DNA of 64,000 bases, taken from positions 9-64,008 of the forward strand of contig JACOUC010000036.1 in assembly GCA_016178055.1 (NCBI GenBank), in the 5' to 3' direction. Below are positions 18,901 to 35,577 of the stretch, piece after piece (the stretch's first letter is position 1; every line of letters begins with the position of its first letter). The notes under the pieces are model-generated. The model saw nothing but the letters and a program-made list of their open reading frames with translations, did no database searches and had not been told where the DNA came from. Made by a program: the position numbers and the translations under genes. This DNA comes from Chlamydiota bacterium (GTDB lineage: Bacteria; Auribacterota; JACPWU01).

Positions 18901-19887
18901 GCCTCGAGCCTTCAGCCCGTTTTCCGCTTCTAGCTGCTTTACATATTCCCCCATCTCTATCTTATGCTCCCTATACTTCTCCCTTTCTTCAATGAGCTCT
19001 ATCAATTCCTTTGGATAAATTTTTTCGGACAAACCCCTAAATATATCATCTAAACCCTGCCAGACATGCTCTTGTAAATTCCTCTCCTTCAAAAGCTCCC
19101 CCATCGCCCTTAAATTCTCGACATAATCAGACAGTTCTTCCACCCCCACTCCCTTAACCTTTTTTGGCCCTTCCTTAACGAGAAAAGTCTCCACCCCATC
19201 GAGTTCATTTTTATCCAAGAATTTTTTGAGAAGAGAAGCTAAAACCCTCTGATCTGGGAAAGACCAGAAAAAGGACATGTCCATTTCACCATCAGCAGCC
19301 TCACAAAATATATGAAATGGTTTAAAATTCTCAGATACGGCTCTAACTTTGAGATTGTTTTGGCTCGAAGCTCGCCCGCCTCGCCTGACTCGTTCGTCAG
19401 ACGAGTCGCCGCCTTTGGCGAGCCTCGCCCTTTGGCGGGAGGTGGGAGGCTCAAGGCTCGAGGTAAATACTTCTGCTTTCTTTGCTTTTGCCTCGAGCTT
19501 CCAGCTTCGAGCCTCGAGCCCGTTTTTTTCTTCGAGCTTCGAGCCTCGAGCCTCTAGCTGCTTTTGTAAAATTTTCAACATCCTCTGAATATTCTCTTGC
19601 GCCTGAGAATTACAATGAATATCTTCAATAATGAAGAGATGAGGTGCTCCGGGGACATAGAATTGATCGGTCACTTCCCCTATTTCATGGGGAATACGCA
19701 TCTCCTCCAAAACTGAACTTAAATCGAGGGATTTGCGATCCACAGGATTAAACTCATTTACAGAAGTGACTGCTTTCAAATGAGTTGCGAATTGAGTATT
19801 CTGGCCAACAGAATAAGAAATGTCATAAAAGAGGAAGGAAAAACAAACGCACAAACTAATCAATGAACGCATAAACCTGACAAGCAT
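3931..19887 (-). CDS. Giant composite ORF1. Order: signal/TM, ChaN/TraB-like N-domain, M50 protease, Clp-type 2xAAA+, beta-propeller-like segment, large unknown region, GT4 glycosyltransferase, SAM-methyltransferase-like block, unknown C-terminus. It may be four fused cistrons.
   Basis: No stop from 19998 to 3931 (5355 codons). Likely start is ATG 19887 (MLVRFMRSLISLCVCFSF, signal-like), preceded by GAGAGGGG. The blocks are separated by stretches that are antisense to real plus-strand genes. In the ORF1 frame these stretches translate as S/T/L/R-rich low-complexity sequence. Confidence 0.55.
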   Translation of the reverse strand: MLVRFMRSLISLCVCFSFLFYDISYSVGQNTQFATHLKAVTSVNEFNPVDRKSLDLSSVLEEMRIPHEIGEVTDQFYVPGAPHLFIIEDIHCNSQAQENIQRMLKILQKQLEARGSKLEEKNGLEARSWKLEAKAKKAEVFTSSLEPPTSRQRARLAKGGDSSDERVRRGGRASSQNNLKVRAVSENFKPFHIFCEAADGEMDMSFFWSFPDQRVLASLLKKFLDKNELDGVETFLVKEGPKKVKGVGVEELSDYVENLRAMGELLKERNLQEHVWQGLDDIFRGLSEKIYPKELIELIEEREKYREHKIEMGEYVKQLEAENGLKARGSKLEAKAKTKGKTENVENKSLPLSSSSLEPRASSQNYPQLDFYLRLQALEKKTDASKIESEYLLFLSELEKKLPKEELNEVLRNILEHRLGRTSDEEHYLFLSKYLGMLEARGSKLEGNNLPSLRPSPGTRRSGWTRKWLEPNTAQTTRRGQEEVEDAKEGSRLRSNNKFSFQASFDISRNASRNDSGARGAVEKHSNNRINKRFEPVEKSAPYPNLQLLIQQMSLLKQISWEKLDEEIKNLEGELVENLATTPQAKELLALEKDYDLLRRVIAMEGSREDIKRLEARGSRQKQKLEKHLLRASSFEPRAKYYPRASSQAGPNDFIGDFLIQLGELAKKEAIDYESPDFGEIFNLSQKFYTQVLKRDKIMFEKSLKLIQEKKLPCAALVVGGFHTEGITKKLKEAKIGYWVIAPRMTGHDDRSAYFRKMKEQFGFISGAPDALKEASLPTLQKIARLHFLEEIRSLGEEAAFAAGLTALQFDQWQRDQEVLARELNLENWEEVARDLEGVIREIERKAGKENRSEVSDELQKNPLLWLERVTTLTQDQMRFFLSHAQTAHSIEIYLRRALELGGYVGDVDGLIRSIGGSRRVSNSANQAEMGRAASLFSTITSRFSSTLNSSKSTLTLIWFLMRRMSDSMRALLSSTLVSLFSTLETRSRVSITTSSSLSNRAFVSFLKPVNPSPKTLNWLLISSIITELYRWASSGVGIGFGVFFSFMRKIIESSPGQVKNIYVFLCIPFAAVFVANPGLLGSAVPLIAIILFSAILHEYAHGWLAARLGDRTAEEAGRLTLLRFWRHLDFWGTISFLASTLLIGIPIGWLKPVPISSWRLSESSMKKVALAGPVSNLILAVVFAVGALAANAVGPFGFLMGPLIWGVKINLALGLVNLLPLPSLDGSYVWPSLQGGEADEAISVLRKAGIASELSLLAMTSPISAFFGFGALGWCEERPLREFLADRLKTADPKTRDLFIKLFQKELEQHYGKPFKEIQANILMKEEFIQKKLDEAAKKLTQILGRIGRQLAQDAEKNPDIKSNLDSEDAEHAASHAVPEALDEMINSGAYTQERFREALTPRLIEKLREMGKMGADDEATVRKLIEECRLPDGVSVVEAIGNWLDEFKILELLQSSNEGGPTSSIVMKPAHTHSHGDGKGEHTHAQHILKIGSVLLAIGTGLLGWIFGSPVFRLSIDAIQDFEILARASSGLSASRNSDAMRRSGLSRETRIASSDDMAQASSIASNGSKGWRLWRWLALSNSVLSGTLTEIIWNIRLIIDRIEASLSRFFLLKRNLSSNRVVRQMSTLERPSSALEIMSNGAFHNSRPVPVSSSSDSQLTMTSVSRMSVGNEGTELSHLAVEGGTFLSDPPGRGLTSRRDEAAAATQERFGNISTSSRKTFRLQFSHQFRQLLQFRGHFKASFIKIVPWGASMINGRSSIASLLFTVVAGLLGYLLGVPFLRLSVGESPMEPLDDYLKRIGLNADVDLGNGQKKKEWQVLKDYTYDLALEADSARPLVGRSEEIGRIMARLATPVRIKNSLVLVGPRGVGKTALVELVSLKLARNNLDGPLKGRRIIALKAGALGSTLSEMSDNLKTLIPLLEKTNNNVILFIDEIHFLLKGPSNSIDTRIADLLKPILEKGRVTVIGATTDPEYKAYIEQDKPFEDRFTKVSVPEPSVQETETILTGAKTYLEGKFSLKIDRATIKAAVKCAQRYLSEKSQPRKAIDVLEGTMGRVNARRNSLEMTKEDFLNRLHSVINEYIDLKKEGVPDTDPTVIEVHNQMIGILEAYHTILSRLSNLRKDIRITQADVQEYLADMTGMAVGALDQDDAAKYLNIEGELHKRVVGQEDAIKAVAQAIRRARAIPGERKRPMGVFFMAGPTGVGKTELAKALAQFLFDSDQALTVFNMSEYQESHQKSRLIGSPPGYVGFQEGGQLTEAVRKRPYSVLLFDEIEKAHSDVLTTLMQVFDEGKLTDGQGNTVDFKNTLIIMTSNIGMEKIQGPLRTLAEELKTAETEEATQAIITQMNDLIAQTVETSIRAKYKPEIINRIDHIIACNVITPENIRQIARILLKRELSDFTENKFKVEVADNVYETLAQRGYDIINGARPLRRLIEQEIRDPLSNRILEEMAQGHILNGGTFHIDINPERGFQFTFDPAPPSDNRLSASQAVAPIFQKIMGLVGQTVDSQNDGVEPAVLSNLIDSERTAPKTDQMNGQYGCFWARTPLPAPPQQRQRSNHNDPQLKDAAITPFTQALPLPEEQRPIAKDWLNEFVRIAKTHNPGRFIELGSELKEGHFNIQIVREGRMSANEEKFLKTHLTGEYPDIEAARQEALRLRESGESNVRNKLLELKAQMASIPGCQLGFTEGENEVTYWLRMECTEAPKVVIVPEPVRDETGSGADSTTTTITADSAGATVTPPSSPSRKRGKKGSVTSTASDAPLGTTTPRSPDSLLTEEAKERIIKRYREYMGKKLVHILVSPDGRTVLTMRFDRTETSWGGDQYNYYLERTRYWSGQVWNVETRELLETFYGGKNWVRSAKFSEDGSQVLTTNGDGSSKIVWQLQTSQSPSLALSEEEPSSGNIIGPEVTPDEEAQWRREIEEQSDKVRSSHEPVVTLVEERSRALAGRLGSEIWSTLVQQGIENDEIVKVLAALQNPREAFKWFEARVLSREKYFLGSESALAVNLMQFLEAEEKSTGISDLVDEATLHEALERTRLTHPQIIQLTDKIFNREGKNPLGKALRRFIEAHILSGETALPAASTLQPLVVRRENVHQRITEEVRQALLSEEIGTLGKLIEGAIQSQVDQLLFLTAVNFVILQDRTLLERYQSKLNILKTKMPSTFSQTLEIYQRLSQAMEKMPDNASMAQGGRICHYDLYRAGQWRQGDQWDVPRDRNDLTLAQSRNAVEALLMKNLETGEGNILLDSLQDELGGRKLSLDDIEFPVQVIRLQEGVYQNIYFILTTLKQTKEVIPLVMVMARDAQEKSRVTSSEYQALLSHRGDAELVEVLRDGEVETQEGKVSAYTSRFINGRDEIQYISPHHAWANRIPPGYLLVNTSLPGKWGAFVEPGDMINTLAAMGRFLVRYYNPEAQTLIDGFRINAGDVGVDVRDLTAAQGRASVISGREMKFSLITWRGTKRGIDPSHFLDYYFNLHWLGSLREGEKGYRHESLGQGHDAILRTGVMQGFLLEMMKKHGNKEGLELAKVWLNHYINEIQARKLSEKPLFKVQELKAFISRYVDPALGSFSSGKGVLLPSYWLASQVTRPLDWFWVNVLGRKSLSRDFKEDFVVPFIEEIFIWALSLGSPVLYAVLRVVFVWGHERRLEAKNELEARSSREKQRTEEVFTSSFEPRASSGFSSSFRRIFIPTLISLVSLLGFFRTGLSSWEMILVVGITFYLVWNLYGARYLARAANFDSRRATRSSRILYSSKSTFTLTRFLMILRSASIRTLLSEIFSTLISPFSSRVSIFPSLISILSTLVSTFSSRVSILSTLVSIRALPSSTPRTRTRKLASSFSIRSNFLSILAKPSSVFSRSPDNPSPKTLNWPRRSSRMTATWLDFITESFSDLFSSMAGIVGQMLRQVKGKSQRAAIFLVVGMGLLILTSLIQPDIALAGLLPDIQPTSVVSNLFSNILRLWPVLAMGLIAHIVSNHWVTVTGALYQKGVLGDDANDDQGSQTSPEGSITVTQGEASTTENLSQLKEAFSGKVLVFYAPGYLEMNGVSTYMDHLLLLLAQEIKGLKIHVIVLGGGQRVSPLLKRDGGKVVVSSELEGVVQIHMTRQNNEPGQDLADEVNGLLRKILQEEGKVDLIVSESSFHYAGNAFNAFGKQNKIPVIQEFHSGPWRLLDRVPEDLVGDSRFFSPNTVNILKKADLALTVSESVQKRFQKDFGVEVECLYPVADLSFYDPRYVTTTKTDDLRVNHSLSGKTVILMSGRPVERKGYDVVLDAILGLSNDLKRNAAVVIAGFTEDMLRDGDDDYNRQFRESLYEKIQHLREEGVLIVLLGPLSAEEMRDWYFLSDIVAMPSRRDEPLKNEETFGLVSLEAQSMGKPVIVSRSGGLPETVVDGETGCIVESGNVEAFRGKIEELIRHPNLRVTMGQRARQVAGKRFSREANLERHLKLFLGVMRRTNILTEIKRIYTEINHQTIEEKNILEGIAAIFGLDFANDDERHREAGKILSIVAALPETRRKEVLENIVRFLKFMTWHASGEHRFMPLALAVVNMFEGRDIFSREPIVRFIQINPQFRYLLDMYHLYANPFGVEAEWIPTHLPSLHLSIPHKDHYRWLDIGSAPKAYGAPTLNLLRKTFEEALPGTHFSYEGTDAFFPSYSLESGEIRESAFNSADFRERGQTDVEGVTYLDARIPQNDVMSESFMQNRSAESFDFISLSMTLHHLKKPDEGVERRFLAKGVDWVDESGNAIQPFYLLTQTQQEVVERLLKRLSHQGVCFLNLPRGEIYFENQNEDLYLVIQRVGENQYCLYQEAIPFQPEYEVYSSVEFLITGLSFPGYNTSGIRSLYPDETNAFFTEINKWLYRADLLVCHYQGRDAFPWASVRAAVRAINERKGLVEIFSAYLHLVPEDEPLKSRILEGVVQFHKQNLIQNFESWAQENITAGLSLREWMESHTVYDILWTLGDATHSFAKETSLSENDLKTLDAVLVELMIQVKHPDLIREAEAHQAKTERLSLELEARRLLDEEGLGQTVQNIEQELEGKVERGEFQQSSITLDFSGDVTWSIRQDMNGASFEMEIGEMTAQLNSQTLGVTHVQMSRPRDLSLALAYLIGLKTKLRHFQKKFLAALKPSADQKPVCLFPDMDLPVQSLGGLSPTEFIKESETGNRKMVFVERKRSREEFDTLCREHQIPQDRVLFLTDLNEQDARSAIDTKVRELFRGKEAEKWLLGHRENRNLYEPIQGLFDKFMYGQEMVSVMAAICYGDAEAITRALLQHGFKPDELEGLLVDVDEHQVTPFANVSRWHDQMEKFREATEMTERSM
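5560..6070 (-). other. ORF1 block: class I SAM-methyltransferase-like region
   Basis: WLDIGSAPKAYGAPT (motif I-like) and FDFISLSMTLHHL (motif III/post-II-like). Weak call made by eye. Confidence 0.35.
6530..7800 (-). other. ORF1 block: GT4-type (GT-B) glycosyltransferase domain
   Basis: VLVFYAPGYLEMNGVSTYMDHL at the N-terminal end of the block. GRPVERKGYD and the EX7E-type ETFGLVSLEAQSMGKPVIVSRSGGLPETV motif lie toward its C-terminal end. Confidence 0.75.
8162..8190 (+). promoter_or_regulatory. Sigma70-type promoter giving a leaderless transcript of the nested coiled-coil gene (copy 1)
   Basis: TTGACT (8162..8167), 17-nt spacer, TACGAT (8185..8190), 7 nt, then ATG at 8198. The geometry is identical to 16709..16737. 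Confidence 0.6.
8198..8695 (+). CDS. Coiled-coil protein of unknown function (copy 1), nested antisense in ORF1
   Basis: MEENKSEN... with six near-perfect heptads (IETKVDK IETRLEK VETKVDK IEIRLGK IETRLEK GEIKVEK). It is a paralog of 16745..17110, sharing QFKVFGEGL and the conserved tail N.RIE.D.R.IKN..KVKVDLEE.K.LE.R. The TTG at 8162 used by the ORF track is the -35 box. Confidence 0.7.
   Translation: MEENKSENDSVMKSSHVAVILEDLRGQFKVFGEGLSGLREKTEEGFARIDKKFDRIENELANFRVRVRGVEDGNARIETKVDKIETRLEKVETKVDKIEIRLGKIETRLEKGEIKVEKISESNVRIEADLRIIKNLVKVKVDLEEYKILEDRVALLESKFAALAR
8848..8945. repeat. In-frame palindromic (GCTCGAG)n hairpin element
   Basis: Left arm 8848..8876, loop TAAATACTTCTTCGGTTCTTTGCTTTTC, right arm 8905..8928. 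In ORF1 it translates as LEAKNELEARSSREKQRTEEVFTSSFEPRASS. Confidence 0.85.
12480..14420 (-). other. ORF1 block: Clp/Hsp100-type double AAA+ ATPase
   Basis: Walker A motifs GPRGVGKT (~14264..14290) and GPTGVGKT (~13255..13280). Also ILFIDEIH, VVGQEDAI, LLFDEIEKAH and GARPLRRLIE motifs. A single TM helix precedes the block (MINGRSSIASLLFTVVAGLLGYLLG). Confidence 0.85.
14615..14643 (+). promoter_or_regulatory. Sigma70-type promoter of the nested PIN module
   Basis: TTGATC (14615..14620), 17-nt spacer, TACTAT (14638..14643). It is followed by the SD AAGGAGG (14651..14657) and ATG 14665. Confidence 0.5.
14665..14853 (+). CDS. Small protein upstream of the PIN gene, putative cognate antitoxin
   Basis: Perfect SD AAGGAGG 7 nt before the ATG. 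The ORF ends 4 nt before the PIN start. No recognisable antitoxin fold by eye. Confidence 0.45.
   Translation: MSAKLQELTELMGELEPKSLSRRSRNVAKALLGSCRGLITPRGKSSTRWIRQERSSLHSKVR
14858..15325 (+). CDS. PIN-domain (VapC-like) ribonuclease, nested antisense in ORF1
   Basis: LILDTDVIVNWL at the N-terminus, LLEL, DPFDAILLACA and SRD acidic-residue motifs of PIN domains. GTG start, with AAGGTGAG upstream. Confidence 0.8.
   Translation: MPSLPTLILDTDVIVNWLSEELETGTGRELWKAPFDIISKAEEGRSSVLICLTTLLELRFLLRRKKRLSDASIRSIINRMFQIISVNVPDKTELLRANHLQSLHPLDPFDAILLACAMSSEEAILVSRDKPLLRIASEFLEALNPEDALAKISKS
16150..16746 (-). other. ORF1 block: M50 (site-2 protease) family metalloprotease
   Basis: HEYAHGW at 16582..16596 (HExxH within a TM helix) and the NLLPLPSLDG motif. 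The block begins at an in-frame Met at 16746 (MRKIIESSPGQVKNIYVFLCIPF). Confidence 0.8.
16709..16737 (+). promoter_or_regulatory. Sigma70-type promoter giving a leaderless transcript of the nested coiled-coil gene (copy 2)
   Basis: TTGACT (16709..16714), 17-nt spacer, TATGAT (16732..16737), 7 nt, then ATG at 16745. Confidence 0.6.
16745..17110 (+). CDS. Coiled-coil protein of unknown function (copy 2), nested antisense in ORF1
   Basis: MNEKKTPKPIP...IIEEMRSQFKVFGEGLTGFRKE...KVKVDLEEFKVLENRL. Paralog of 8198..8695. Confidence 0.7.
   Translation: MNEKKTPKPIPTPEEAQRYNSVIIEEMRSQFKVFGEGLTGFRKETNARFDRLEEVVMDTRERVSRVENRLTKVEESNARIESDIRLIKNQIKVKVDLEEFKVLENRLVIVEKRLAALPISA
17946..18050. repeat. In-frame palindromic (GCTCGAG)n hairpin element
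   Basis: Arms 17972..18000 and 18028..18050, loop TAAATGCTTCTCCAGTTTTTGCTTTTG. Translated as LEARGSRQKQKLEKHLLRASSFEPRA. Confidence 0.85.
18290..18577. repeat. Composite GC-richer insertion ending in a (CCTCGAG)n arm
   Basis: Contains the 20-mer GTTCGAGCGTAGTCGAGAAC (18400..18419), an internal IR CCTTCCTTCGCG/CGCAAGGAAGG, and the arm 18550..18577. ORF2 and ORF3 have no counterpart in their N-domains. Confidence 0.6.
18798..18917. repeat. In-frame palindromic (GCTCGAG)n hairpin element, long-loop variant
   Basis: Arms 18798..18827 and 18888..18917, with a ~60-nt loop similar to that of 54885..55004. Confidence 0.85.
19362..19556. repeat. In-frame (GCTCGAG)n element with a nested GC-rich hairpin insertion
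   Basis: GGCTCGAAGCTCG ... [GACTCGT-TCGTCAG-ACGAGTC hairpin] ... GGCTCAAGGCTCGAGG TAAATACTTCTGCTTTCTTTGCTTTTG CCTCGAGCTTCCAGCTTCGAGCCTCGAGCC. Confidence 0.8.
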
Positions 19888-20069
19888 GACAACCCCTCTC
19901 GATCTTGAAAAAATCAATAATGACTGCAAGCTTACATAAGTAAAGACACTTTGGGGACTAGAAATGTAAAAATAAAAATTTAGAAATTTCCATCTCACAA
20001 TTGATAAAGGAAGGTTTCTTATAGAATAACCAGCTATTCCTTCAAGCCCTTACATAATGATTTCCTCTA

Positions 20070-22236: not shown

Positions 22237-22247
22237 ACGAATGAATC

Positions 22248-24209
22248 ATGATCGCATTTCATAAAGAAATTCTAAAGAACTATGATCGGGCCTCTAAACG
22301 AGAATGGGTCGTCACCAATGGCCTGGGCGGTTACGCCTCTTCGACCATCTGTGGCGCCAATACTCGCCGATATCACGGCCTCCTGGTTGCAAGTATAGAG
22401 CCCCCCACCAACCGCATGGTCATTCTCTCTAAAGTAGAGGAAACCATTCACATCGATGGAAAATCCTATGATCTTTCTTGCAACAAATTTCCTGAAACCA
22501 TTCATCCGATGGGTCATCAACATTTAGAACTTTTTTCTTTTGAATTCTACCCCAAATTCATTTACTCCGTTGATGGGGTTCGACTCGAAAAAAATGTTTA
22601 TATGATTTTTGAAAAGAATGCGACAATTATTTTTTATCGCCTGCTTGAGAGTCCTAAACCGATTAAACTCAGTCTCATGAGTTTTGTGGCTTGTCGAAGA
22701 TTCCATGAACTCACCCATGAGAATCCTTTCTTTAATCCCAAAGTCGAATGTCAAGAGGGCCTACTCAGACTGAAGCCCTACAAAAATGCCCCGATGATTC
22801 ATTTCTTTTTTAGCCCTGCGCAATTTGCCGATAACCCATTATGGTATCAAAATTTTGAATATGAAAAGGAATACCGTCGAGGCCTGGATTATCGTGAAGA
22901 TTTATTTACCCCTGGCGACTTAACGTTTGACATCGCTCCGGGAGGCTCCTGTTTCCTGATTGTTTCAACCGACGAGCTTTCATCCTCAGATCTTCTTCAG
23001 GCAGAATTTAAAGAAACAGAACGAAAAAAACTGATTCTAAAAAATTGCAATAAAGACGATAAGCTTGCCTTTTCCCTCTTCTTGGCGGCAGATACTTTTC
23101 TTGTCCAAAGAGGAGAAAAAGGTTCTGCCTCTGTCATTGGGGGATATCACTGGTTTAGTGATTGGGGGCGTGACACCATGATCAGCCTTCCCGGACTTAC
23201 CTTAGCGACAGGTCGATTTGACCTTGCAAAAAGCATTCTCACCACCTATTCAAAATATTGTTCACAGGGAATGCTCCCGAACCGATTTCCTGATGAAGGA
23301 AAAGAGCCTGACTACAACACCGTCGATGCAACCCTGTGGTTTTTTAATGCGATCTACCAATATTTTCTTTATACCGGCGATGAAATTTTTATTCGCTCGA
23401 CGCTTTTTCCTGTTCTTAAAGATATGATTCACTGGCATGAACAGGGAACCCGCTATCAAATTCACGTGGAAGAGGACGGTCTTCTTTTTGCAGGAGAAAA
23501 AGGCAGCCAATTGACTTGGATGGATGCAAAAATTGGTGACAATGTCATCACTCCCCGTGTAGGGAAAGCCGTTGAAGTGAACGCCCTTTGGTATAACGCC
23601 CTCAAAATCATGGAATTTTTTTCCGATCGATTTGGTTTTCTCCCACTCAGAGACCATTATAGCTCAATGGCCGACCTGGCAAAAAAAAGTTTTAACCACC
23701 TCTTTTGGAATCCCGAACTCGAATGCCTCTATGATGTTATTCAAGAAAATCAGGGAGATCCGTCGATTCGCCCCAATCAAATTTTTTCAATCAGCCTTCC
23801 CTTCCCTATTCTTAAAACAGAGCACCATCGTCCCGTTTTAAAAATCATTGAACAAGAACTCCTCACCCCTTATGGGCTTCGAAGTCTCTCCCCTCAAAAT
23901 CCAAAATACACAGGAAAATATTCCGGTAACGCCATTGTCCGTGACAAATCTTATCATCAAGGAACCGTTTGGCCCTGGCTCTTGGGGCCCTATGTTACTT
24001 CTTTTTTAAAAGTCCATGGTCGTACGGGCCGCACCCTTGATAAAGTCAAAGAAATGCTTGAACCTTTTCGGGATCATCTTTATGAAAATGGCATTGGAAC
24101 CATCTCCGAACTCTTTGATGGAGACGCACCCCATGAGCCCAATGGATGCATTTCTCAGGCCTGGAGTGTTGCAGAAATTTTGAGAGTCGTTGTGGAAGAA
24201 CTGAAATAA
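22248..24209 (+). CDS. Glycogen debranching enzyme (amylo-alpha-1,6-glucosidase family)
   Basis: 653 aa. It has GGYASSTICGANTRRYHGLL, GYHWFSDWGRDTMISLPGL and the C-terminal QAWS motif typical of the archaeal/bacterial GDE family. Confidence 0.85.
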   Translation: MIAFHKEILKNYDRASKREWVVTNGLGGYASSTICGANTRRYHGLLVASIEPPTNRMVILSKVEETIHIDGKSYDLSCNKFPETIHPMGHQHLELFSFEFYPKFIYSVDGVRLEKNVYMIFEKNATIIFYRLLESPKPIKLSLMSFVACRRFHELTHENPFFNPKVECQEGLLRLKPYKNAPMIHFFFSPAQFADNPLWYQNFEYEKEYRRGLDYREDLFTPGDLTFDIAPGGSCFLIVSTDELSSSDLLQAEFKETERKKLILKNCNKDDKLAFSLFLAADTFLVQRGEKGSASVIGGYHWFSDWGRDTMISLPGLTLATGRFDLAKSILTTYSKYCSQGMLPNRFPDEGKEPDYNTVDATLWFFNAIYQYFLYTGDEIFIRSTLFPVLKDMIHWHEQGTRYQIHVEEDGLLFAGEKGSQLTWMDAKIGDNVITPRVGKAVEVNALWYNALKIMEFFSDRFGFLPLRDHYSSMADLAKKSFNHLFWNPELECLYDVIQENQGDPSIRPNQIFSISLPFPILKTEHHRPVLKIIEQELLTPYGLRSLSPQNPKYTGKYSGNAIVRDKSYHQGTVWPWLLGPYVTSFLKVHGRTGRTLDKVKEMLEPFRDHLYENGIGTISELFDGDAPHEPNGCISQAWSVAEILRVVVEELK

Positions 24210-24214
24210 AGCCT

Positions 24215-24245
24215 ATTTCGAATCTCGGATTTCGAATTTCGAATT
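24215..24245. repeat. Left heptamer-repeat arm of the four-helix-bundle cassette
   Basis: ATTTCGA ATCTCGG ATTTCGA ATTTCGA ATT. Its reverse complement shares an 18-19 nt perfect core with 24617..24649. Confidence 0.8.
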
Positions 24246-24255
24246 GAAAAACAAA

Positions 24256-24618
24256 ATGAATTCTCAAGAGTTAAAAACGAGGACTAAACTGTTTGGACTT
24301 AAAATCATTCTTTTGGTTGAAAAATTGCCACGTTCAAAAACATTGGATATTATAAATCGTCAACTTCTACGCTCTGCAACATCCATCGGGGCAAATTATA
24401 GAGCTGCATGTCGTGCAAGATCCAAAGCGGATTTTGTGTCAAAAATTGGCATTGTCGAAGAAGAATCCGATGAATCAGTTTATTGGCTTGAATTGCTTAT
24501 AGAAACTAAGCTGGTTACTGATACCCAAATACATGTCTTGCTTAAAGAAGCAAACGAGTTAACAGCGATCTTTACCGCAACAGGAAGAACTACAAAAGAA
24601 AAACAGAAAAATGAATAA
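24256..24618 (+). CDS. Four-helix-bundle protein (23S rRNA intervening-sequence protein family)
   Basis: LPRSKTLDIINRQLLRSATSIGANYRAACRARSKADFVSKIGIVEEESDESVYWLELL fits the family pattern. ATG at 24256; the track start 24244 is a TTG inside the repeat arm. Confidence 0.8.
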   Translation: MNSQELKTRTKLFGLKIILLVEKLPRSKTLDIINRQLLRSATSIGANYRAACRARSKADFVSKIGIVEEESDESVYWLELLIETKLVTDTQIHVLLKEANELTAIFTATGRTTKEKQKNE

Positions 24619-26113
24619 ATCCGAGATTCGAAATCCGAAATCCGAAATCAAGAGGCTTTCCCTCGAATCCCTTGCCCAAAATGCCCTCGATGAGGCTATT
24701 TCGCTTGGAGCTTCCTACGCCGATGTCCGATTAATTGAATCCACCAGCCGAAATCTGGCCACCAAAAATGGAGTTCCAACCAGTTTGGATATTGAAGAAT
24801 CGCAAGGCCTAGGAATCAGGCTTCTTTATCATGGGGCCTGGGGATTTGCGGCTACGCATGATCTTTCAAATGAAAATGTATTACGGACAGCCTTTAAAGC
24901 CATTAAAATTGCTAAGGCCAGCGCCCTCACAAAAAAAGAGCCTGTTCGACTGGCCGAAGAAAAACCGATTCAAACAGAATGGTCCAGCCCCTTCTCCATC
25001 GATCCTTTTTCAGTTCCTATTGAAGAGCAACTTAATTTTTTATTACAAATCGATGAAGAAATCAGAAAAACCAAAGGGATCAGCATCTCTGAAACATCCA
25101 TGCATTTTCATAAAGAACACAAACTTTTTCTCTCGAGCGAAGGAAGCCGTATTCTCCAGCACTTTATCACCAGTGGAGCAGGGTTTGTTGCGATGGCTTT
25201 TCGAGATGGAGAATTGCAAAAACGTTCTTACCCTAATTCCTTTGGGGGACAATACCAAAAAAAGGGTTATGAGCTCATTCAAGAGCTAGAACTTCTCAAA
25301 AACGTTCCAAGAATCGCTGAAGAAACCGTTCGCCTTTTAGATGCCCCCAGTTGCCCTGTTGGAGAAAAGGATCTCATTTTAGACAGCTCTCAACTCGGTC
25401 TTCAAATCCATGAATCGGTTGGACACCCTATTGAGCTCGATCGAGTGCTCGGAAGTGAGGCCAATTACGCCGGAAAAAGTTTTCTTACGCTAGATCAATT
25501 AAAAACCCTTCAGTACGGATCCCCTATTGTTCACGTCGTCGCTGACGCTAGACTTTCACATGGTCCAGGTCTCGGCACGTTTGGCTATGATGATGAGGGC
25601 GTCCCTGCACAAGGAACGGATATTATTCGAGAGGGACAATTTGTAGGCTATCTCTCCTCTCGCGAGACCGCTCAAGATATCGGCGAAACACGCAGCAATG
25701 GAACCATGCGAGCTGAAAGCTGGAATCGGATTCCATTAATCCGCATGACCAATATTAGCCTCATGCCAAAAAATTGGGACTTTGAAAACTTAATTGCAGA
25801 CACAAAAGATGGAATTTATTTAGAAACAAATCGAAGCTGGAGCATTGATGATCGTAGGCTCAATTTTCAATTTGGAACTGAAATAGGATGGGAAATTAAA
25901 AATGGCAAGAAGATGAATAGGGTCAAAAACCCAATTTATTGGGGAATCACACCCGAATTCTGGAACGCCTGCGATGCCATTTGTAGTGATCGATATTGGA
26001 CGCTCTGGGGAACTCCCAATTGTGGCAAAGGACAACCCTGCCAAACCATGGGAACAGGTCACGGTTCTAGTCCAGCTAGGTTTCGCGGGATAAAGGTTGG
26101 AGCCAGTCATTGA
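24611..26113 (+). CDS. tldD: TldD-family metalloprotease
   Basis: 500 aa. The HESVGHPIELD (HExxxH) motif and overall TldD/PmbA architecture are present, and it pairs with the PmbA-like gene downstream. The only in-frame start lies inside the cassette arm. Confidence 0.8.
   Translation: MNKSEIRNPKSEIKRLSLESLAQNALDEAISLGASYADVRLIESTSRNLATKNGVPTSLDIEESQGLGIRLLYHGAWGFAATHDLSNENVLRTAFKAIKIAKASALTKKEPVRLAEEKPIQTEWSSPFSIDPFSVPIEEQLNFLLQIDEEIRKTKGISISETSMHFHKEHKLFLSSEGSRILQHFITSGAGFVAMAFRDGELQKRSYPNSFGGQYQKKGYELIQELELLKNVPRIAEETVRLLDAPSCPVGEKDLILDSSQLGLQIHESVGHPIELDRVLGSEANYAGKSFLTLDQLKTLQYGSPIVHVVADARLSHGPGLGTFGYDDEGVPAQGTDIIREGQFVGYLSSRETAQDIGETRSNGTMRAESWNRIPLIRMTNISLMPKNWDFENLIADTKDGIYLETNRSWSIDDRRLNFQFGTEIGWEIKNGKKMNRVKNPIYWGITPEFWNACDAICSDRYWTLWGTPNCGKGQPCQTMGTGHGSSPARFRGIKVGASH
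24617..24649. repeat. Right heptamer-repeat arm of the four-helix-bundle cassette
   Basis: AAATCCG AGATTCG AAATCCG AAATCCG AAATC. Translated as the first residues of TldD (KSEIRNPKSEI). Confidence 0.8.
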
Positions 26114-26119
26114 CAAGAA

Positions 26120-26178
26120 GATCTATAAACGCGGATCTAACGCAGATCTATAAACGCAGATCAAATGCGGATCTATTT
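26120..26178. repeat. Left repeat arm of the GxxExxY cassette
   Basis: Tandem GATCTATAAACGCG / GATCTAACGCA / GATCTATAAACGCA / GATCAAATGCG units, complementary to the right-arm units GATCCGCGTTT. Confidence 0.75.
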
Positions 26179-26655
26179 ATGGCTATAGAAGAAAAATTGC
26201 TGTATCAGGAGATTACATATGAGATTAGAGGAGCGTGTTTCTGGATATGGAAGGAATTCGCAAGTGCATTCAAAGAATCTATCATTGATAAAGCCCTCAC
26301 GGAGGAACTCAAGAAAAGGGGACTTAAGGTTGATAACCAAAAACACATAGACATTTTCTACAACAAAAAGAAAGTAGGAACTTATATTCCTGATAAAGTT
26401 ATCAATGATTGTGTGCTCGTTGAACTCAAAAGAAAACCTTTTTTACTACGGCAAGATAAAGAACAATTGTGGCATTATTTAAAAGGATCCGAATACAAAT
26501 TGGGTTTGCTAATCAACTTTGGAGAAAACGAACTAGAGTTTGAACGCATCGCCTACGACACTAAAAGAAGATCAAAGAGAGATCAGCGCCAGATCCGCGT
26601 TGCAGATCCGCGTTTGATCCGCGTAGTAGATCCGCGTTTGATCCGCGAACAATGA
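26179..26655 (+). CDS. GxxExxY protein (PD-(D/E)XK-like family)
   Basis: MAIEEKLLYQEITYEIRGACF... and LGLLINFG are typical of the GxxExxY family. The C-terminal 25-30 aa (IRVADPRLIRVVDPRLIREQ) are read from the right repeat arm. The track start 26110 is a TTG. Confidence 0.75.
   Translation: MAIEEKLLYQEITYEIRGACFWIWKEFASAFKESIIDKALTEELKKRGLKVDNQKHIDIFYNKKKVGTYIPDKVINDCVLVELKRKPFLLRQDKEQLWHYLKGSEYKLGLLINFGENELEFERIAYDTKRRSKRDQRQIRVADPRLIRVVDPRLIREQ
26581..26650. repeat. Right repeat arm of the GxxExxY cassette
   Basis: Five units of (CA)GATCCGCGTTTG type. The arm ends at the ATGA stop/start overlap with pmbA. Confidence 0.75.
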
Positions 26656-27992
26656 AAATACTCAAAGAGAAATCTGAACAAGTTTTTGATACGGTTTTCA
26701 AAACCAGTCAGGCTGATGAAACTGAAATTCATTTTAACTGGATCACCCATGCCCTCACCCGGTTTGCCAATAACGAGATTCATCAAAATATGGGGGACGA
26801 AGATATTGAAGTTTCGATTCGTTCATCCTTTGGAAAAAAAACGGCTCGGGTCACTACGAATAAAACGGACATGGAATATCTCAAAAAAATGACCCAGTTG
26901 TCAAATCATCTGGCTTCCCTAACCCCTGAGGATCCCGACCTTCTTCCCATGCCAGGGCCCCAAACTTATCCCACAGTGAAACACGCTTATGAAAGAACAG
27001 ATCACATCAAAGCTGAAACCAGAGCTCGTGCGGTTTCAGTCCCCATCAAAATCGCACAACTAAAAAATCTGACTTGCGCAGGTATTTTCGCAAATGATCT
27101 CACACGTCATGCCCTTGGAAATTCCAAAGGACTTCGAGCCTATTCTGAGGAAACCTACGCTGTTTTTTCAACCACCATGATGGATAACAAACTAGGTTCA
27201 GGTTGGGCAAAAATGGGTCACCCCGATTCTACTCAAATCCCCGTCGAAACCTTGGCCTTACAGGCTTCTGAAAAAGCTATTTTAAGTAAGAATCCGATTG
27301 ATATTTCTGCAGGTGCTTACACCGTGATTCTCGAACCCTCTGCTGTGCTTGATCTCCTTGAATTCATGCTTCTTGATTTTGGAGGACTTTCCGTTTTAGA
27401 ACAAAGGAGTGCCTTTACAGAAAAATTGGATAAAAAAATTTTTGGTTCAAATATTACTTTTAAGGATGATATTTATCACCCCTTACAATCAGGAGCCCCC
27501 TTTGACGGTGAAGGATTTCCAAAAAAGCAAATTGAGTTGGTCCAAAATGGCATTTTAAAAAATTTGGTCTATAGCCAATCAAGCGCTCTTCGCTCTCAAA
27601 AAAAGCCTACAGGCCATGGATTTCCGGTTCCCAACGCTTATGGAGAAGCACCCATGAATTTCGTCATGAACGGGGGAAACTCCTCCCTCAAGCAAATGAT
27701 TGAAGGAACGGATCGAGGGCTTCTCATGACTCGTTTCTGGTATATCCGTGAAGTCGATCCCATGCAAAAAATCTTGACGGGAATGACAAGAGATGGGACT
27801 TTTTTAATTGAAAATGGCGTTTTAAAATCGGCCGTTAAAAATTTAAGATTCAACGAAAGCTTATTTCATCTATTAAATAATGTGGTTGAATTAGGACCCA
27901 GTGTCCGTGCCTCTGGAGAGGAAGGAATGGATATGATTGTCCCTGCTTTAAAAGCGAACGATTTTCACTTTACAAGCAGTACTAAATATTAA
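26652..27992 (+). CDS. pmbA: PmbA/TldE-family protein (TldD partner)
   Basis: 446 aa with the TldD/PmbA-family fold pattern but no HExxxH motif. It lies downstream of tldD. Confidence 0.75.
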   Translation: MKILKEKSEQVFDTVFKTSQADETEIHFNWITHALTRFANNEIHQNMGDEDIEVSIRSSFGKKTARVTTNKTDMEYLKKMTQLSNHLASLTPEDPDLLPMPGPQTYPTVKHAYERTDHIKAETRARAVSVPIKIAQLKNLTCAGIFANDLTRHALGNSKGLRAYSEETYAVFSTTMMDNKLGSGWAKMGHPDSTQIPVETLALQASEKAILSKNPIDISAGAYTVILEPSAVLDLLEFMLLDFGGLSVLEQRSAFTEKLDKKIFGSNITFKDDIYHPLQSGAPFDGEGFPKKQIELVQNGILKNLVYSQSSALRSQKKPTGHGFPVPNAYGEAPMNFVMNGGNSSLKQMIEGTDRGLLMTRFWYIREVDPMQKILTGMTRDGTFLIENGVLKSAVKNLRFNESLFHLLNNVVELGPSVRASGEEGMDMIVPALKANDFHFTSSTKY

Positions 27993-27994
27993 TA

Positions 27995-28226
27995 AAATCC
28001 AAAATTTAAACATCAAAAATCAAAATGACATCTCAAAATCCAAAATATATCTATGTCATAGATCATGAAATCATTTTAAATTTTAATATGTCATTTTGAT
28101 TTTTGTCATCATGAACTTTCAGTCCACCCAAGTGGATGAAAATTGAGTTCCTCCCCTTTGGGGTACAAAGGAGGGAAATAGCCAGTAACAACGTCTCATT
28201 TTCATGACTGAATTTTGATTTTTGGA
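27995..28226. repeat. Intergenic inverted-repeat element with AAAATCA-type heptamer arms
   Basis: CATCAAAAATCAAAATGAC (28010..28028) pairs with GTCATTTTGATTTTTG (28091..28106). A further copy GAATTTTGATTTTTGG lies at ~28210..28225. There is an internal hairpin CCTCCCCTTTG-GGGTA-CAAAGGAGGG. Confidence 0.55.
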
Positions 28227-28242
28227 ATATCGAAAGGATACT

Positions 28243-29085
28243 ATGTTTTACTCTAAAACTAAAATGTCTCTTAAACTCGCCCACAGTCCCGACGCCGATG
28301 ACGCATTCATGTTTTACGGTCTAGCCAAAGGTTTTGTTCCGTCTGAAGAAATTGAATTCACACATATCTTAAGCGATATCGAAACCCTTAATCAAAAAGC
28401 CAAAGAAGGGATTTATGAAGTCACCGCCCTTTCAGTCCATGCCTATCCTTATGTCAGCGACCGCTATAACATTTTAAAATCTGGCGCAAGCATTGGAGAT
28501 AACTATGGCCCCCTTTTAGTCGCTCGAGAAAAAATGAGCATTGAAGATCTTAAATGGAAAATCATTGCGGTTCCCGGAACCCTGACCACAGCTTATCTTG
28601 CTCTTAAACTTTTTGACCGAAATATTCGAACCAAAATCATTCCTTTCAATCAAATTATTGCAGCCGTGGAAAAAAAAGAAGTGGATGTTGGCCTGATCAT
28701 TCATGAAGGACAGCTTACATTTTCAAAAAATGGCCTTCATAAAATTTTAGATTTAGGAGTTTGGTGGAACGAAACAACCGGACTTCCTCTTCCCCTCGGA
28801 GTGAACGGAATTCGAAAAGATTTAGAACCCTCTCTTCAGAAAAAAATCGCCCGTCTTATTAAAGAAAGTATTTGTTATTCACTTTCCCATCGAAAAGAAG
28901 CGGTAGAGTACGCCCTTCAATTTGCTCGTGGAATGGATCCCGTCCTTGCGGATAAATTTATTGGCATGTATGTGAACGACGACACCATTGAAATGAGCGA
29001 GCAAAGCCAAAAAGCCATTGACGTCCTTCTCACTAGAGCCTTTGAGGAAGGATTAATCCTCCAAAAAAAATTAGAATATATCTAA
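28243..29085 (+). CDS. MqnA/MqnD-family menaquinone (futalosine pathway) protein
   Basis: LKLAHSPDADDAFMFYGL and a periplasmic-binding-like architecture typical of the MqnA/MqnD family. Start set at ATG 28243 (AAAGGA upstream); the track start 28222 is a TTG. Confidence 0.65.
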   Translation: MFYSKTKMSLKLAHSPDADDAFMFYGLAKGFVPSEEIEFTHILSDIETLNQKAKEGIYEVTALSVHAYPYVSDRYNILKSGASIGDNYGPLLVAREKMSIEDLKWKIIAVPGTLTTAYLALKLFDRNIRTKIIPFNQIIAAVEKKEVDVGLIIHEGQLTFSKNGLHKILDLGVWWNETTGLPLPLGVNGIRKDLEPSLQKKIARLIKESICYSLSHRKEAVEYALQFARGMDPVLADKFIGMYVNDDTIEMSEQSQKAIDVLLTRAFEEGLILQKKLEYI

Positions 29086-29244
29086 TATAACTCCCTTTTT
29101 AGCAATGAGTTATCGATGTTCAAAACTGTTTAATGTCAGGATTCATTTTCCCTTGACATCGCCCACTCAGCAGCGTGAGAATGGGGGTAAGAGGTCTTAT
29201 AAAGAGACCTTGTGGTGTTAGTAAAAGCAGAATAAAGCAAGGTT

Positions 29245-29345
29245 ATAGCCCGATAAAGGCAAACTATTCGAAAGAATGGGGCGCAAAGTTACAGATCCGA
29301 AGATTTTGAGTTCGTGAATCGTATAACATTCCACGAGTCAGGAAC
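29245..29345 (+). promoter_or_regulatory. c-di-GMP-I (GEMM-I) riboswitch aptamer
   Basis: 29258..29288 reads GGCAAACTATTCGAAAGAATGGGGCGCAAAG. This matches the core of the V. cholerae Vc2 aptamer as I recall it (GGCAAACCAUUCGAAAGAGUGGGACGCAAAG) at 28 of 31 positions. Two of the three differences keep the GAAA-capped stem paired. A second hairpin follows. Confidence 0.7.
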
Positions 29346-29403
29346 CCAGAGTCAGGGTGGCTGAACTGCCAAAGGCTGTGAACTTAGAGTTCCTTTGTGC
29401 ACA

Positions 29404-29435
29404 CCTGTTCTTCGAATAGAAGAACAGGTTTTTTT
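29404..29435 (+). terminator. Intrinsic terminator (riboswitch expression platform)
   Basis: CCTGTTCTTC-GAATA-GAAGAACAGG followed by TTTTTTT, 22 nt upstream of the pseudopilin ATG. Confidence 0.8.
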
Positions 29436-29456
29436 ATGGGCACGAAGAGGAACTCT

Positions 29457-35550: not shown

Positions 35551-35577
35551 TGCGGGAATCTGTTACGCGGCGGCGGC
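35551..35577. repeat. Original copy of the repeat at the ORF2 stop codon
   Basis: See 34715..34740. The two copies bracket the MNT-HepT pair. Confidence 0.7.

Follow-up and report, generated by a model that had tools for sequence, protein, structure and literature searches.

Small nuclease genes of the GxxExxY family are bracketed by paired arrays of short complementary repeats, and computational comparison shows, at the level of sequence, that these arms accompany the gene wherever it occurs, next to unrelated genes and in unrelated phyla. The arm-gene-arm unit is an apparently undescribed, widespread kind of mobile hitchhiker. The copy that we analysed fills the junction of the housekeeping genes tldD and pmbA in the genome of an environmental chlamydia. 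In our preferred reading, to which we assign a probability of roughly 0.55, the unit is a foldback cassette, selfish and passed on horizontally, that hitchhikes on the transcription and translation of the operon and resembles intervening sequences (IVSs) of rRNA. GxxExxY proteins and the four-helix-bundle proteins encoded by a neighbouring cassette are among the most numerous unexplained small bacterial genes; for the latter, a homologue search returned >7,800 close matches.

The tldD–pmbA cassette and its neighbour

The window, by which we mean the whole 64-kb stretch of DNA analysed, carries the features listed in Table 1. Every coordinate given in the first-pass annotation, such as that of the tldD stop, matched the sequence and the lists of open reading frames (ORFs), as did the ATGA overlap of the GxxExxY ORF with pmbA. 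Its description of a hitchhiker cassette with complementary repeat arms, wedged exactly at the tldD–pmbA junction, also held, as this junction measures 0–29 nt in relatives and the arms pair when folded. The left arm begins 5 nt past the tldD stop and the right arm ends 4 nt before the ATG of pmbA (26652), with which the cassette stop overlaps as ATGA. At the upstream end, the nuclease frame also contains a TTG at 26110 that shares bases with the tldD stop (TTGA); judged from the reading frame, a start at this TTG could extend the nuclease ORF through the left arm.

Table 1. Features of the two cassettes, the host genes and the cargo-less hairpin, in window coordinates
Feature	Coordinates	Strand	Details
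Left arm, four-helix-bundle cassette	24215..24245	+	Heptamer ATTTCGA, 4.4 copies (Tandem Repeats Finder)
Four-helix-bundle protein gene ('23S rRNA intervening-sequence protein' family)	24244..24618	+	TIGR02436, PF05635
tldD	24611..26113	+	Upstream host-gene flank; PmbA_TldD domains 1-3; stop TGA 26111-26113
Right arm, four-helix-bundle cassette	24617..24649	+	Heptamer AAATCCG, 4.7 copies (Tandem Repeats Finder)
Left arm, GxxExxY cassette	26119..26176	+	4-5 units, core CGC[G/A]GATC, spacing 11-14 nt
GxxExxY / PDDEXK_3 nuclease gene	26179..26655	+	158 aa; ATG 26179, stop 26653-26655
Right arm, GxxExxY cassette	26580..26647	+	~6 units, core GATC[C/A]GCG, spacing 11-13 nt
pmbA	26652..27992	+	Downstream host-gene flank; PF19289, E = 3e-43
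Cargo-less hairpin, A-rich heptamer-type units	27994..28105	+	Directly after pmbA; no gene

The right-arm units are the reverse complement of the left-arm units, whose core CGCNGATC occurs 11 times in the window, nine of them within the two arms. Tandem Repeats Finder assigned periods of 11, 14 and 25 to the left array (26119-26176), and a period of 11 (5.8 copies) together with one of 24 to the right array (26580-26647). A repeat search returned six inverted pairs of 21–22 nt with 86–90% complementarity, and two inverted pairs were 100% complementary over 12–13 nt (AAACGCGGATCT / AGATCCGCGTTT). RNA folding, the check that the first-pass annotation had proposed for the arms, bore out their pairing in the window copy and in two others. 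In the predicted fold of 26100-26670, the arms form a terminal stem of ~50 bp in the minimum free energy (MFE) and centroid structures alike (z-score −4.77; 0 of 100 shuffles folded equally well), and the arms likewise form a terminal stem in the folds of all three copies (window, L001 and L010; z = −4.8, −3.1 and −2.9). Chance repeats or an assembly artefact can for practical purposes be discounted: nothing points that way beyond the origin of the window in a metagenome-assembled genome, no shuffle folds as well, the independently assembled sister genome L001 has the same cassette at the same locus, and the same architecture recurs in dozens of independent assemblies; the last two findings already refute this explanation. 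An Rfam search of 23500-28500 matched no family, and no universal rRNA motif was present in the window region or at any of ~80 homologous loci. Promoter-like and terminator-like sites in 21500-29500 were no more frequent than expected by chance.

The cassette protein belongs to the GxxExxY family, with matches to TIGR04256 'GxxExxY protein' (E = 9.5e-28, 96.9 bits, cut-off 35) and PF13366 PDDEXK_3 (E = 8e-28, 97.6 bits, cut-off 22), and the NCBI record of the identical protein carries the name 'GxxExxY protein'. The domain covers residues 11-124. As the first-pass annotation had it, the ORF runs through the right arm, which encodes the tail ..DQRQIRVADPRLIRVVDPRLIREQ; residues 131-158 are arm-encoded and predicted to be disordered. 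An AlphaFold2 model has a mean pLDDT of 82, with values <50 in the tail. The protein has the alpha-beta-beta-beta-alpha-beta core and the catalytic D ... (D/E)-x-K residues of the PD-(D/E)XK superfamily, and D72, E82 and K84 are kept across 35 homologues. Comparison with the L001 orthologue (pN 0.13, pS saturated) shows computationally a pattern of purifying selection on the nuclease gene, with its catalytic residues retained. In our literature search, GxxExxY appeared as an annotation label only, and no account of the arms or of GxxExxY biology was found.

A second cassette in the same operon, also recognized at first pass, proved to be real: a four-helix-bundle gene lies between heptamer arms, which are paired in the MFE structure as well as in the centroid structure (z = −3.71). 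Its left arm begins 6 nt past the stop of the glycogen-debranching-enzyme (GDE) gene (22248..24209). The protein matched TIGR02436 (E = 2e-23, 82.7 bits, cut-off 24) and PF05635 (E = 4e-17, 62.8 bits, cut-off 33.8), as well as, at 100%, an NCBI 'four helix bundle protein [Chlamydiae bacterium]' of 120 aa, and probably starts at ATG 24256. Its TAA stop shares bases with the start of tldD (ATGAATAA). When the N-terminus of TldD was aligned with that of L001, the first ~13 tldD codons (MNKSEIRNPKSEI) were seen to be right-arm sequence, and therefore the cassette donates the start codon of tldD. The L120 junction is cassette-free, and there the GDE stop and the tldD start overlap as TAATG.

The two cassettes had been described as having the same arm-gene-arm architecture. 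They do share this design, but the repeat unit differs, at 11–13 nt in the one and 7 nt in the other. Beyond the window, the four-helix-bundle cassettes had 7-nt units in 8 of 8 loci (the window and seven further ones), and the flanks of GxxExxY genes had a period of 10–12 nt in 72 of 99 arrays. With 7-nt units beside one cargo and 10–13-nt units beside the other, arm type therefore follows cargo; computationally, the core and period of the arms are shown to be conserved and cargo-specific in these sequences. The cargo-less hairpin after pmbA consists of an inverted repeat (33 nt, 88% complementary) around a loop of 26 nt. Its arm class is that of the four-helix-bundle cassettes, and it is 80% identical to L001 3845-3950, a different locus. 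Heptamer hairpins also lie within giant ORFs of the window.

Insertion history and spread of the unit

The first-pass annotation had suggested comparing the tldD–pmbA spacing in related genomes. Using PmbA orthologues (70–78% identity) as synteny anchor, we found three Chlamydiota relatives with the order GDE-tldD-pmbA-mqnA, in which the tldD|pmbA gaps were 0, 5 and 29 nt and free of repeats; in distant relatives they were ~2–15 nt. Because same-order relatives have repeat-free junctions of 0–29 nt, the cassette is an insertion. When its presence and absence were mapped over five syntenic Chlamydiota on a neighbour-joining tree of TldD and PmbA, both carriers, the window genome and L001, were sisters, and therefore a single gain in their common ancestor is shown by this computational comparison of sequences. 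Homing of the gene into a pre-existing empty hairpin, with the nuclease cutting a cargo-less hairpin and the gene being copied in, was considered and rejected: the three empty tldD|pmbA junctions are hairpin-free, and the whole unit therefore arrived together at this site. When empty and filled sites are compared, only ACAA (window) or CAA (L001) is seen on both sides of the 5 + 4 nt spacer.

To judge from the alignments, gene and arms have both been retained intact after the insertion. The arms of the window and L001 are 85% (left) and 86% (right) identical at aligned positions, as against 52% at third codon positions, although they differ from each other by whole units; the TldD orthologues share 81% amino-acid identity (dN/dS ~0.05). 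As one locus has been kept since the two lineages split, the cassette may now be immobile here. Such retention would also fit a domesticated operon component that is no longer selfish and whose nuclease and stem serve TldD and PmbA, for example by adjusting the tldD:pmbA ratio. Gene and arms have indeed been held at one locus under purifying selection, with synonymous sites saturated, and the stop/start overlaps tie translation of the cassette to that of the neighbour genes. We nevertheless regard domestication as very improbable: tldD and pmbA are intact and adjacent in the three relatives without the cassette, close homologues reside in unrelated operons, among them dap, bat, pilin, recG and lepA, and the L001 nuclease ORF ends within the arm and lacks the ATGA overlap.

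Homologues with 70–77% identity were found at the junction of dapB with an aminotransferase gene (L010) and at the batA–batB junction (L011), both with the same AGATC..ACGC / GCGT..GATC arms. The same element thus lies at different genomic sites, tldD|pmbA, dapB|aminotransferase and batA|batB, as a mobile element would. Further homologues, at 60–79% identity, are present in Patescibacteria, Firmicutes and others. Across 78 homologous loci from other phyla and gene contexts, CGC[TGA]GA was enriched 30–41-fold over background upstream of the gene and its reverse complement 26–37-fold downstream, while counts of the core in the wrong orientation were ~10-fold lower. At least three units on both sides, spaced 10–13 nt, were present in 58 of 76 loci, in arrays of 3–6 units. 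From Chlamydiota to Patescibacteria, with proteins that are 45–79% identical, the arms have retained the core CGCNGA(T), and cargo and arm cores diverge together. In some relatives, the unit lies in frame inside RecG (916 aa) or LepA (808 aa), or in front of prepilin. The prepilin fusion (L015) has a prepilin peptidase as its neighbour, and the nuclease domain might be set free at G|FTLVE. We also sought the ends of the element by comparing the surroundings of identical proteins. Both candidates, P0049 and P0040, turned out to represent one locus each across strains, and the lone breakpoint, 270 nt upstream, was uninformative for boundaries.

The gene listings of the loci contained no transposase domain, and the only ORF in the element is the PD-(D/E)XK nuclease. 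The nuclease could be a passenger on a non-autonomous DNA transposon, having no part in movement and a cellular role of its own, for example in defence or addiction; the arms would then be multi-site terminal inverted repeats for a transposase encoded elsewhere. Transposons, such as Tn7 and Mu, typically end in phased multi-site arrays of this type. Solo cargo-less hairpins with the same cores (9, against 54 filled elements, in 350 kb) speak for this explanation, as do the MITE-like behaviour of the heptamer element of the window, with its 80% identical counterpart at another L001 locus, and the occurrence of similarly designed arms around the four-helix-bundle gene, whose product is no nuclease. 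What makes us think it quite unlikely is that none of the locus listings includes a transposase gene beside the cassettes, that ACAA/CAA falls short of a convincing target-site duplication, that arm type correlates strictly with cargo type, for which a shared transposase acting in trans would have no need, and that cargo diverges together with the arm cores.

Pairing of the arms and a possible route of spread

The two arms of one element remain complementary, as our computational comparison of own and foreign arms shows for the sequences at hand. Own-element arms paired better than arms from foreign loci in 51 of 52 cases (p = 6e-10), and the alignment scores were 44 for own and 29 for foreign arms. 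We found no strand preference in this pairing: RNAduplex energies did not differ between sense and antisense (p = 0.12), and G.T mismatches between the arms (117) were not in excess over A.C mismatches (162). A stem specific to the sense RNA is therefore unsupported by either mismatch counts or duplex energies. In many Patescibacteria copies, moreover, the spacers between the cores are A-rich on both arms and unpaired (213 A.A cells), which implies short helices with internal loops, a non-ideal substrate for RNase III.

These data bear on a purely RNA-level explanation, an 'mRNA intervening sequence' whose arms matter only as double-stranded RNA cut by RNase III. Cleavage would free the cassette mRNA and split the tldD message from that of pmbA; arm sequence would be irrelevant, and the unit would spread by an unrelated route. 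The long, nearly continuous stem predicted for the window copy, the better pairing of own arms and the sense orientation of nearly all copies are in keeping with this, and there is precedent in the four-helix-bundle ORF-bearing IVSs of 23S rRNA, which are cut by RNase III (PMC4990558), and in 23S_rRNA_IVP ORFs within rRNA insertions of CPR bacteria (PMC11270868). If structure were the only constraint, however, the arms would be free to drift by covariation; instead, CGCNGA(T) has been kept from Chlamydiota to Patescibacteria, with a unit period specific to the cargo (7 versus 10–13 nt). The unpaired A-rich spacers of many copies and the lack of excess G.U pairs on the sense strand do not fit either, the in-frame copies in RecG and LepA must escape cleavage, and none of ~80 GxxExxY loci lies in an rRNA gene. 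Taken together, we hold an action at the RNA level alone to be rather unlikely.

As a foldback cassette, the unit would consist of a promoter-less small PD-(D/E)XK nuclease gene between inverted arrays with the 8-nt core CGCNGATC phased every 11–13 nt, and would have entered the spacer of a few nucleotides between tldD and pmbA as a whole. With no promoter or terminator of its own, it would be expressed from the operon transcript, and the start/stop overlaps on both sides (TTGA and ATGA) point to translational coupling; in the relatives mentioned above, the unit simply forms in-frame fusions with proteins of the host. Within this transcript, the two arms could zip into the ~50-bp stem and so reunite the tldD stop with the start of pmbA. 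By analogy with ORF-carrying IVSs of 23S rRNA, this stem is a likely RNase III substrate. With the stem and its processing by RNase III, the insertion would be nearly harmless.

The arms are probably recognition arrays. During spread, in what is the least certain step, the helically phased cores might act in cis as an array recognized by the element's own protein or by a dedicated partner, a role like that of multi-site terminal inverted repeats; this mode of movement is one that we infer. As there is no preference for the sense strand, pairing could have its role in the DNA, or inter-arm conversion could maintain it. Several observations count against the foldback-cassette reading: excision of the in-frame copies in RecG and LepA would destroy the mRNA, we found neither a convincing target-site duplication nor a canonical transposase, the stem has no sense preference, A-rich spacers are left unpaired, and the cassette has kept its one locus since the two species diverged.

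Relation to known elements

A close parallel is with the IVSs of 23S rRNA, which are sporadic, horizontally acquired and have been termed selfish; in Coxiella, the terminal stem of the ORF-bearing IVS measures 28 bp and is cut by RNase III (PMC4990558). Like the cassette, these IVSs (found in Coxiella, Leptospira, Brucella and Xanthomonas, with 'S23p' as the four-helix-bundle protein) combine an ORF of ~120 aa with terminal inverted repeats that form a long stem, and are transcribed with the host transcript. The neighbour cassette (24215-24649) carries exactly their protein family (PF05635), and both cassettes have a predicted terminal stem (z = −4.77 and −3.71). Unlike IVSs, both lie between protein-coding genes of an mRNA operon and not in rRNA, the GxxExxY cargo is a PD-(D/E)XK nuclease, and the arms are phased arrays of a conserved core instead of a plain inverted repeat.

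MITEs such as Correia (Neisseria) and ERIC (Yersinia) elements lie in or near operons and form mRNA hairpins cut by RNase III or RNase E (PMC10969869, PMC2649163); in Correia elements, RNase III cleaves the terminal inverted repeats within mRNAs (PMC10969869). The cassette shares terminal inverted repeats with them, here as arrays of 3–6 units and not as a single repeat, and its cargo-less versions are MITE-like. MITEs differ in being geneless, with defined target-site duplications and a parent IS that encodes a transposase, whereas the cassette has a conserved cargo and no transposase. Rickettsia palindromic elements (RPEs) lie in frame in unrelated protein genes, where they are translated as surface insertions (PMC10969869). 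The fusions of relatives to RecG, LepA and prepilin, the right arm at the TldD start and the heptamer hairpins in the giant ORFs of the window resemble them. RPEs, however, have neither a cargo domain nor tandem-unit arms, and the GxxExxY cassette is intergenic, with only its right arm translated, as the tail of its own ORF.

Free-standing homing-endonuclease genes are similar in being small nuclease genes between conserved genes, in the same orientation, patchily distributed among close relatives and horizontally transferred. Homing endonucleases, for example the small PD-(D/E)XK enzyme I-Ssp6803I, are directed to a single conserved allelic site and lack repeat arms; the insertion sites of the cassette are unrelated, and its arms are part of the unit. 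Integron gene cassettes, too, carry a single gene without a promoter, are oriented one way and have a folding, imperfect inverted repeat (attC). Their attC is one-sided and they form arrays next to intI, in contrast to the cassette, which has arms on both sides and sits singly in a housekeeping operon. In eukaryotes, foldback transposons such as Drosophila FB have long terminal inverted repeats made of tandem short units and sometimes a central cargo. This is a likeness of design only, FB being eukaryotic, much larger and unrelated in sequence.

A broader proposal, which we put forward tentatively and think less probable than not, is that foldback cassettes form a distinct, transposase-free class of prokaryotic mobile elements in which each cargo protein binds its own flanking array and directs excision, integration or copying. 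As part of the same tentative proposal, the GxxExxY nuclease would recognize units of ~11–13 nt, and the four-helix-bundle protein units of 7 nt. The class might also be the origin of ORF-bearing rRNA IVSs, of cargo-less, RPE-type in-frame palindromes and of the RecG, LepA and pilin-leader domain insertions in Patescibacteria. The unit is now a testable system, with cargo-specific phased arms that enter gaps of a few bases between coupled genes and with in-frame fusion as a further possibility (RecG, LepA and the prepilin leader). This system links three puzzles so far dealt with apart: the nature and spread of rRNA IVSs, the source of in-frame palindromic insertions and the insertion-rich proteins of Patescibacteria. 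For annotation, a practical rule follows: the starts and ends of genes are distorted where arms add coding sequence, as happens here with 13 codons at the beginning of TldD and 28 at the end of the nuclease.

Anatomy of the cassette between tldD and pmbA

The first-pass annotation had described a GxxExxY gene flanked by complementary repeat arms at the tldD–pmbA junction, and coordinates, profile matches and repeat arrays all agree with this description (see table). The ORF matched TIGR04256 ('GxxExxY protein') at 96.9 bits (cut-off 35) and, by profile match, is also a member of Pfam PDDEXK_3; its overlap with pmbA was likewise as claimed. The units of the left arm (AAACGCGGATCT) and the right arm (AGATCCGCGTTT) are reverse complements, with left/right pairs of 21–22 nt being 86–90% complementary. 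The core CGCNGATC has nine copies in the arms, against two in the remaining 63 kb of the window. Folding of the arms had been proposed as a check, and in the predicted RNA structure of 26100–26670 they form a closing stem of ∼50 bp, in the MFE and centroid structures alike (z-score −4.77). The copies in the sister genome (L001) and at a dapB/aminotransferase gene junction elsewhere (L010) likewise have the arms as terminal stem in their predicted folds. Thus, the observation on the cassette is confirmed, and its interpretation is supported.

Features of the tldD–pmbA region and giant ORFs in the window
Feature	Coordinates	Details	Method
Giant ORF	3931..19998 (−)	5355 aa	
Four-helix-bundle gene	24244..24618	TIGR02436/PF05635	
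tldD	24611..26113	stop 26111–26113	
Left array	26119–26176		Tandem Repeats Finder and repeat search
GxxExxY ORF	26179–26655	158 aa, ATG start	
Right array	26580–26647		Tandem Repeats Finder and repeat search
pmbA	start 26652	overlaps cassette stop as ATGA	
Giant ORF	35563..56601 (−)	7012 aa	
Giant ORF	56702..63754 (−)	2350 aa	

The second arm–gene–arm cassette that had been noted in the operon was also recovered: a four-helix-bundle gene between the glycogen-debranching-enzyme gene (GDE) and tldD, flanked by heptamer arrays (ATTTCGA ×4.4 and AAATCCG ×4.7; RNA fold z-score −3.71).

Insertion history and constraint

The window is part of a metagenome-assembled Chlamydiota genome, and NCBI has its identical proteins on a 66.8-kb contig. 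We compared five genomes with the gene order GDE–tldD–pmbA–mqnA-like. The suggested comparison of tldD–pmbA spacing bore out an insertion, as the junctions of the three Chlamydiota relatives are short and free of repeats: in L120 the three genes abut, with the pmbA ATG directly after the tldD stop, and the gap is 5 nt in L121 and 29 nt in L118. More distant relatives have gaps of ∼2–15 nt or carry short hairpins that are unrelated. The GxxExxY cassette is confined to the window and L001 (JACPWU010000011), which share its position and its arm units and are sisters in a neighbour-joining tree of TldD and PmbA. The cassette was inserted as a unit, and the simplest history is a single gain in the common ancestor of the two. 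Since no hairpin is present at the empty junctions, homing of the gene into a pre-existing empty hairpin was rejected here. No convincing target-site duplication was found around the cassette, whose spacers are 5 nt (CAAGA) and 4 nt (AACA).

Gene and arms are under purifying selection. In the comparison of the window with L001, synonymous substitution is saturated (pS ∼0.8), pN is 0.13 for the cargo and 0.14 for tldD, and the arms are 85–86% identical at aligned positions, compared with 52% at third codon positions of the gene; unit number differs on both sides, both L001 arms being shorter. The window copy is an insertion that is old and has been inherited vertically; the mobile cassette to which it belongs is widespread and has received little study.

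Among the five genomes, the four-helix-bundle cassette is present in the window only. The GDE|tldD junction holds an AAA_14/DUF4143 ATPase gene in L001 (L001:2526–3848), a VanZ gene in L118 (L118:2286–2807) and three other genes, one encoding an ankyrin-repeat protein, in L121 (L121:668–2925); in L120 it is empty, stop and start overlapping as TAATG. Having received different inserts in four genomes, this junction was hit several times and is an insertion hot spot.

Spread of the unit and cargo-specific arms

The unit is spread across gene contexts and phyla. Hundreds of GxxExxY homologues at 60–79% identity occur in Patescibacteria (Sungbacteria, Portnoybacteria, Wolfebacteria), a Syntrophomonadaceae genome and elsewhere. 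Cargo 70–77% identical to that of the window lies at L010 and at a batA/batB junction (L011), on the same strand as its neighbours and with the same arm units (AGATC..ACGC/GCGT..GATC). We scanned metagenome contigs and obtained 80 further loci, across which the arm statistics were taken. CGC[T/G/A]GA was enriched 30–41-fold over background in the 130 nt upstream of the domain, its reverse complement was enriched downstream to an equal degree, and wrong-orientation counts were ∼10 times lower. At least three units were present on each side in 58 of 76 loci, spaced by 10–13 nt. Many Patescibacteria copies follow a fixed four-unit plan (11/12/10 nt, outermost (T)AGAAGC...GCTTCT(A)), and spacing alternates between 11 and 13 nt in the Chlamydiota-like group. 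Arm complementarity is maintained: the alignment score was 44 for an element's own arms and 29 for arms of other elements, and in 51 of 52 cases an element's own arms gave the better RNA duplex energy (p = 6e-10).

Arm design is conserved, phased and cargo-specific. Period was 10–12 nt in 72 of 99 arrays detected beside GxxExxY genes, and heptamer arrays flanked the four-helix-bundle gene in 8/8 loci examined (window, L021, L051, L078, L092, L094, L096 and L100), where the unit sequence drifts (ATTTCGA, ATTGCGG, ATTTCCA, AATTTTA, CTTTCAA) at a constant 7-nt period and inverted arrangement. In L021 and L092, each gene flank is itself a complete hairpin of left-type and right-type units. Cassettes of the two kinds repeatedly lie less than ∼2 kb apart in unrelated genomes (the P0022 protein locus, L100–L109, L021), as in the window. 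In L021, the four-helix-bundle cassette is immediately upstream of a GxxExxY cassette and surrounded by a ∼45-nt direct repeat, GAGGTTTTGCAGTTATAC..GGAAGGTAAAT (L021:2300–2350 and 2838–2880), which may be a duplicated target or a piece of a composite unit. In L096–L099, the four-helix-bundle gene has CRISPR cas6/cas2 on one side and dprA on the other.

What might the arms do? The arm stem could form in the transcript and be cut by RNase III. Two analogies suggest this: the enzyme cuts the 28-bp terminal stem of an ORF-bearing 23S rRNA IVS in Coxiella (PMC4990558), and Correia elements are a precedent for such cleavage in mRNAs (PMC10969869). As the whole story, however, RNase III cleavage is countered by the absence of sense-strand preference in stability or G·U-type mismatches, by A-rich spacers that are unpaired in many Patescibacteria copies, and by in-frame copies, in which cleavage is not permissible. 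A double-stranded RNA requirement alone would explain neither the core conserved across phyla nor the cargo-specific period; these point to a putative mode of arm recognition that depends on sequence and geometry. At the average spacing of ∼11 nt, successive cores would lie on one helix face, and the element's own protein might recognize them as an array when the unit spreads. Against such an array stand the failure to find a target-site duplication and the four-helix-bundle cargo, which is not a nuclease.

The closest known things include ORF-bearing rRNA IVSs, which share the neighbouring cassette's cargo family and the terminal stem but are defined by a location in rRNA not found here, MITEs processed in mRNAs, free-standing homing-endonuclease genes and Rickettsia palindromic elements, which the cassette's relatives resemble in their in-frame behaviour; eukaryotic foldback transposons are alike in design only. 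The GxxExxY cassette is without a transposase, and identity with an integron cassette was rejected. According to the curators of the TIGRFAM models, both families reportedly have many paralogues per genome, TIGR02436 also occurring in rRNA IVSs. In the searched literature, three papers mention GxxExxY, as an annotation label only; a PD-(D/E)XK survey gives PDDEXK_3 the entry 'unknown' and notes multiple transfers (PMC3424549), and a study of CPR rRNA insertions reports 23S_rRNA_IVP ORFs there, leaving arms and mRNA sites unmentioned (PMC11270868). New here are arms of phased repeats whose type is specific to the cargo, and the habit of inserting at operon junctions and in frame; the cassette's anatomy is now well defined, and its family is very large.

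Life in the operon, fusions and cargo-less hairpins

Cassettes and operon interlock at four points. The stop codon of the four-helix-bundle gene overlaps the start of tldD (ATGAATAA), and the first ∼13 TldD residues are encoded by this cassette's right arm. The tldD stop shares bases with an in-frame TTG, and the stop of the GxxExxY gene overlaps the start of pmbA. Promoter-like and terminator-like sites in 21500–29500 were no commoner than chance. The GxxExxY cassette is probably co-transcribed and translationally coupled with the operon.

Elsewhere, ∼17 of 76 loci contain an in-frame fusion between a host gene and the GxxExxY domain. Insertions lie in RecG between the DEQH and SATPIPR motifs (helicase motifs II/III; 916-aa ORF) and in LepA before DTPGH (808-aa ORF). 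The whole arm–GxxExxY–arm unit sits in RecG loops (L084:1579–4329, L067, L086) and LepA loops (L080:2674–5100) of Patescibacteria-like contigs, and the same ORFs contain further in-frame cargo-less hairpins with the genome's own core variant, e.g. ACTCAGAT. The domain also precedes type IV prepilins, joined through a right-arm linker to the leader ..KGFTL[IV]E.. (prepilin-like fusions at L015:2103–3996, and in L013, L014, L066, L074 and L088). At L015, a 337-aa ORF of GxxExxY domain, arm-encoded linker and KGFTLVELLV... lies directly downstream of a prepilin-peptidase gene; in principle, this peptidase could free the nuclease domain. In 350 kb, 9 cargo-less hairpins with GxxExxY cores were counted, of which one is in frame in LepA, compared with 54 filled elements. 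What emerges is an element selected for harmlessness and for expression at the host's expense.

Directly after pmbA, at 27994–28105, lies a cargo-less hairpin of A-rich heptamer-type units (33-nt arms, 88% complementary). An 80% identical copy at another locus in the sister genome, before tldD (L001:3845–3950), suggests a MITE-like element that moved. Two heptamer arrays in the window, ATTTTGG ×4.7 (62897–62929) and AGGCTCG ×4.4 (36485–36515), have no obvious partner array nearby. The three giant ORFs, which have similar N-termini, contain several in-frame hairpins of GGCTCGA/GCCTCGA heptamer arrays (e.g. 17972–18050, 18798–18911, 19450–19520, 54885–55003 and 63039–63399). Translated as ..LEARGSKLEA..(loop)..SSLEPRASS..., these look like cargo-less insertions of the Rickettsia-palindromic-element type with heptamer arms.
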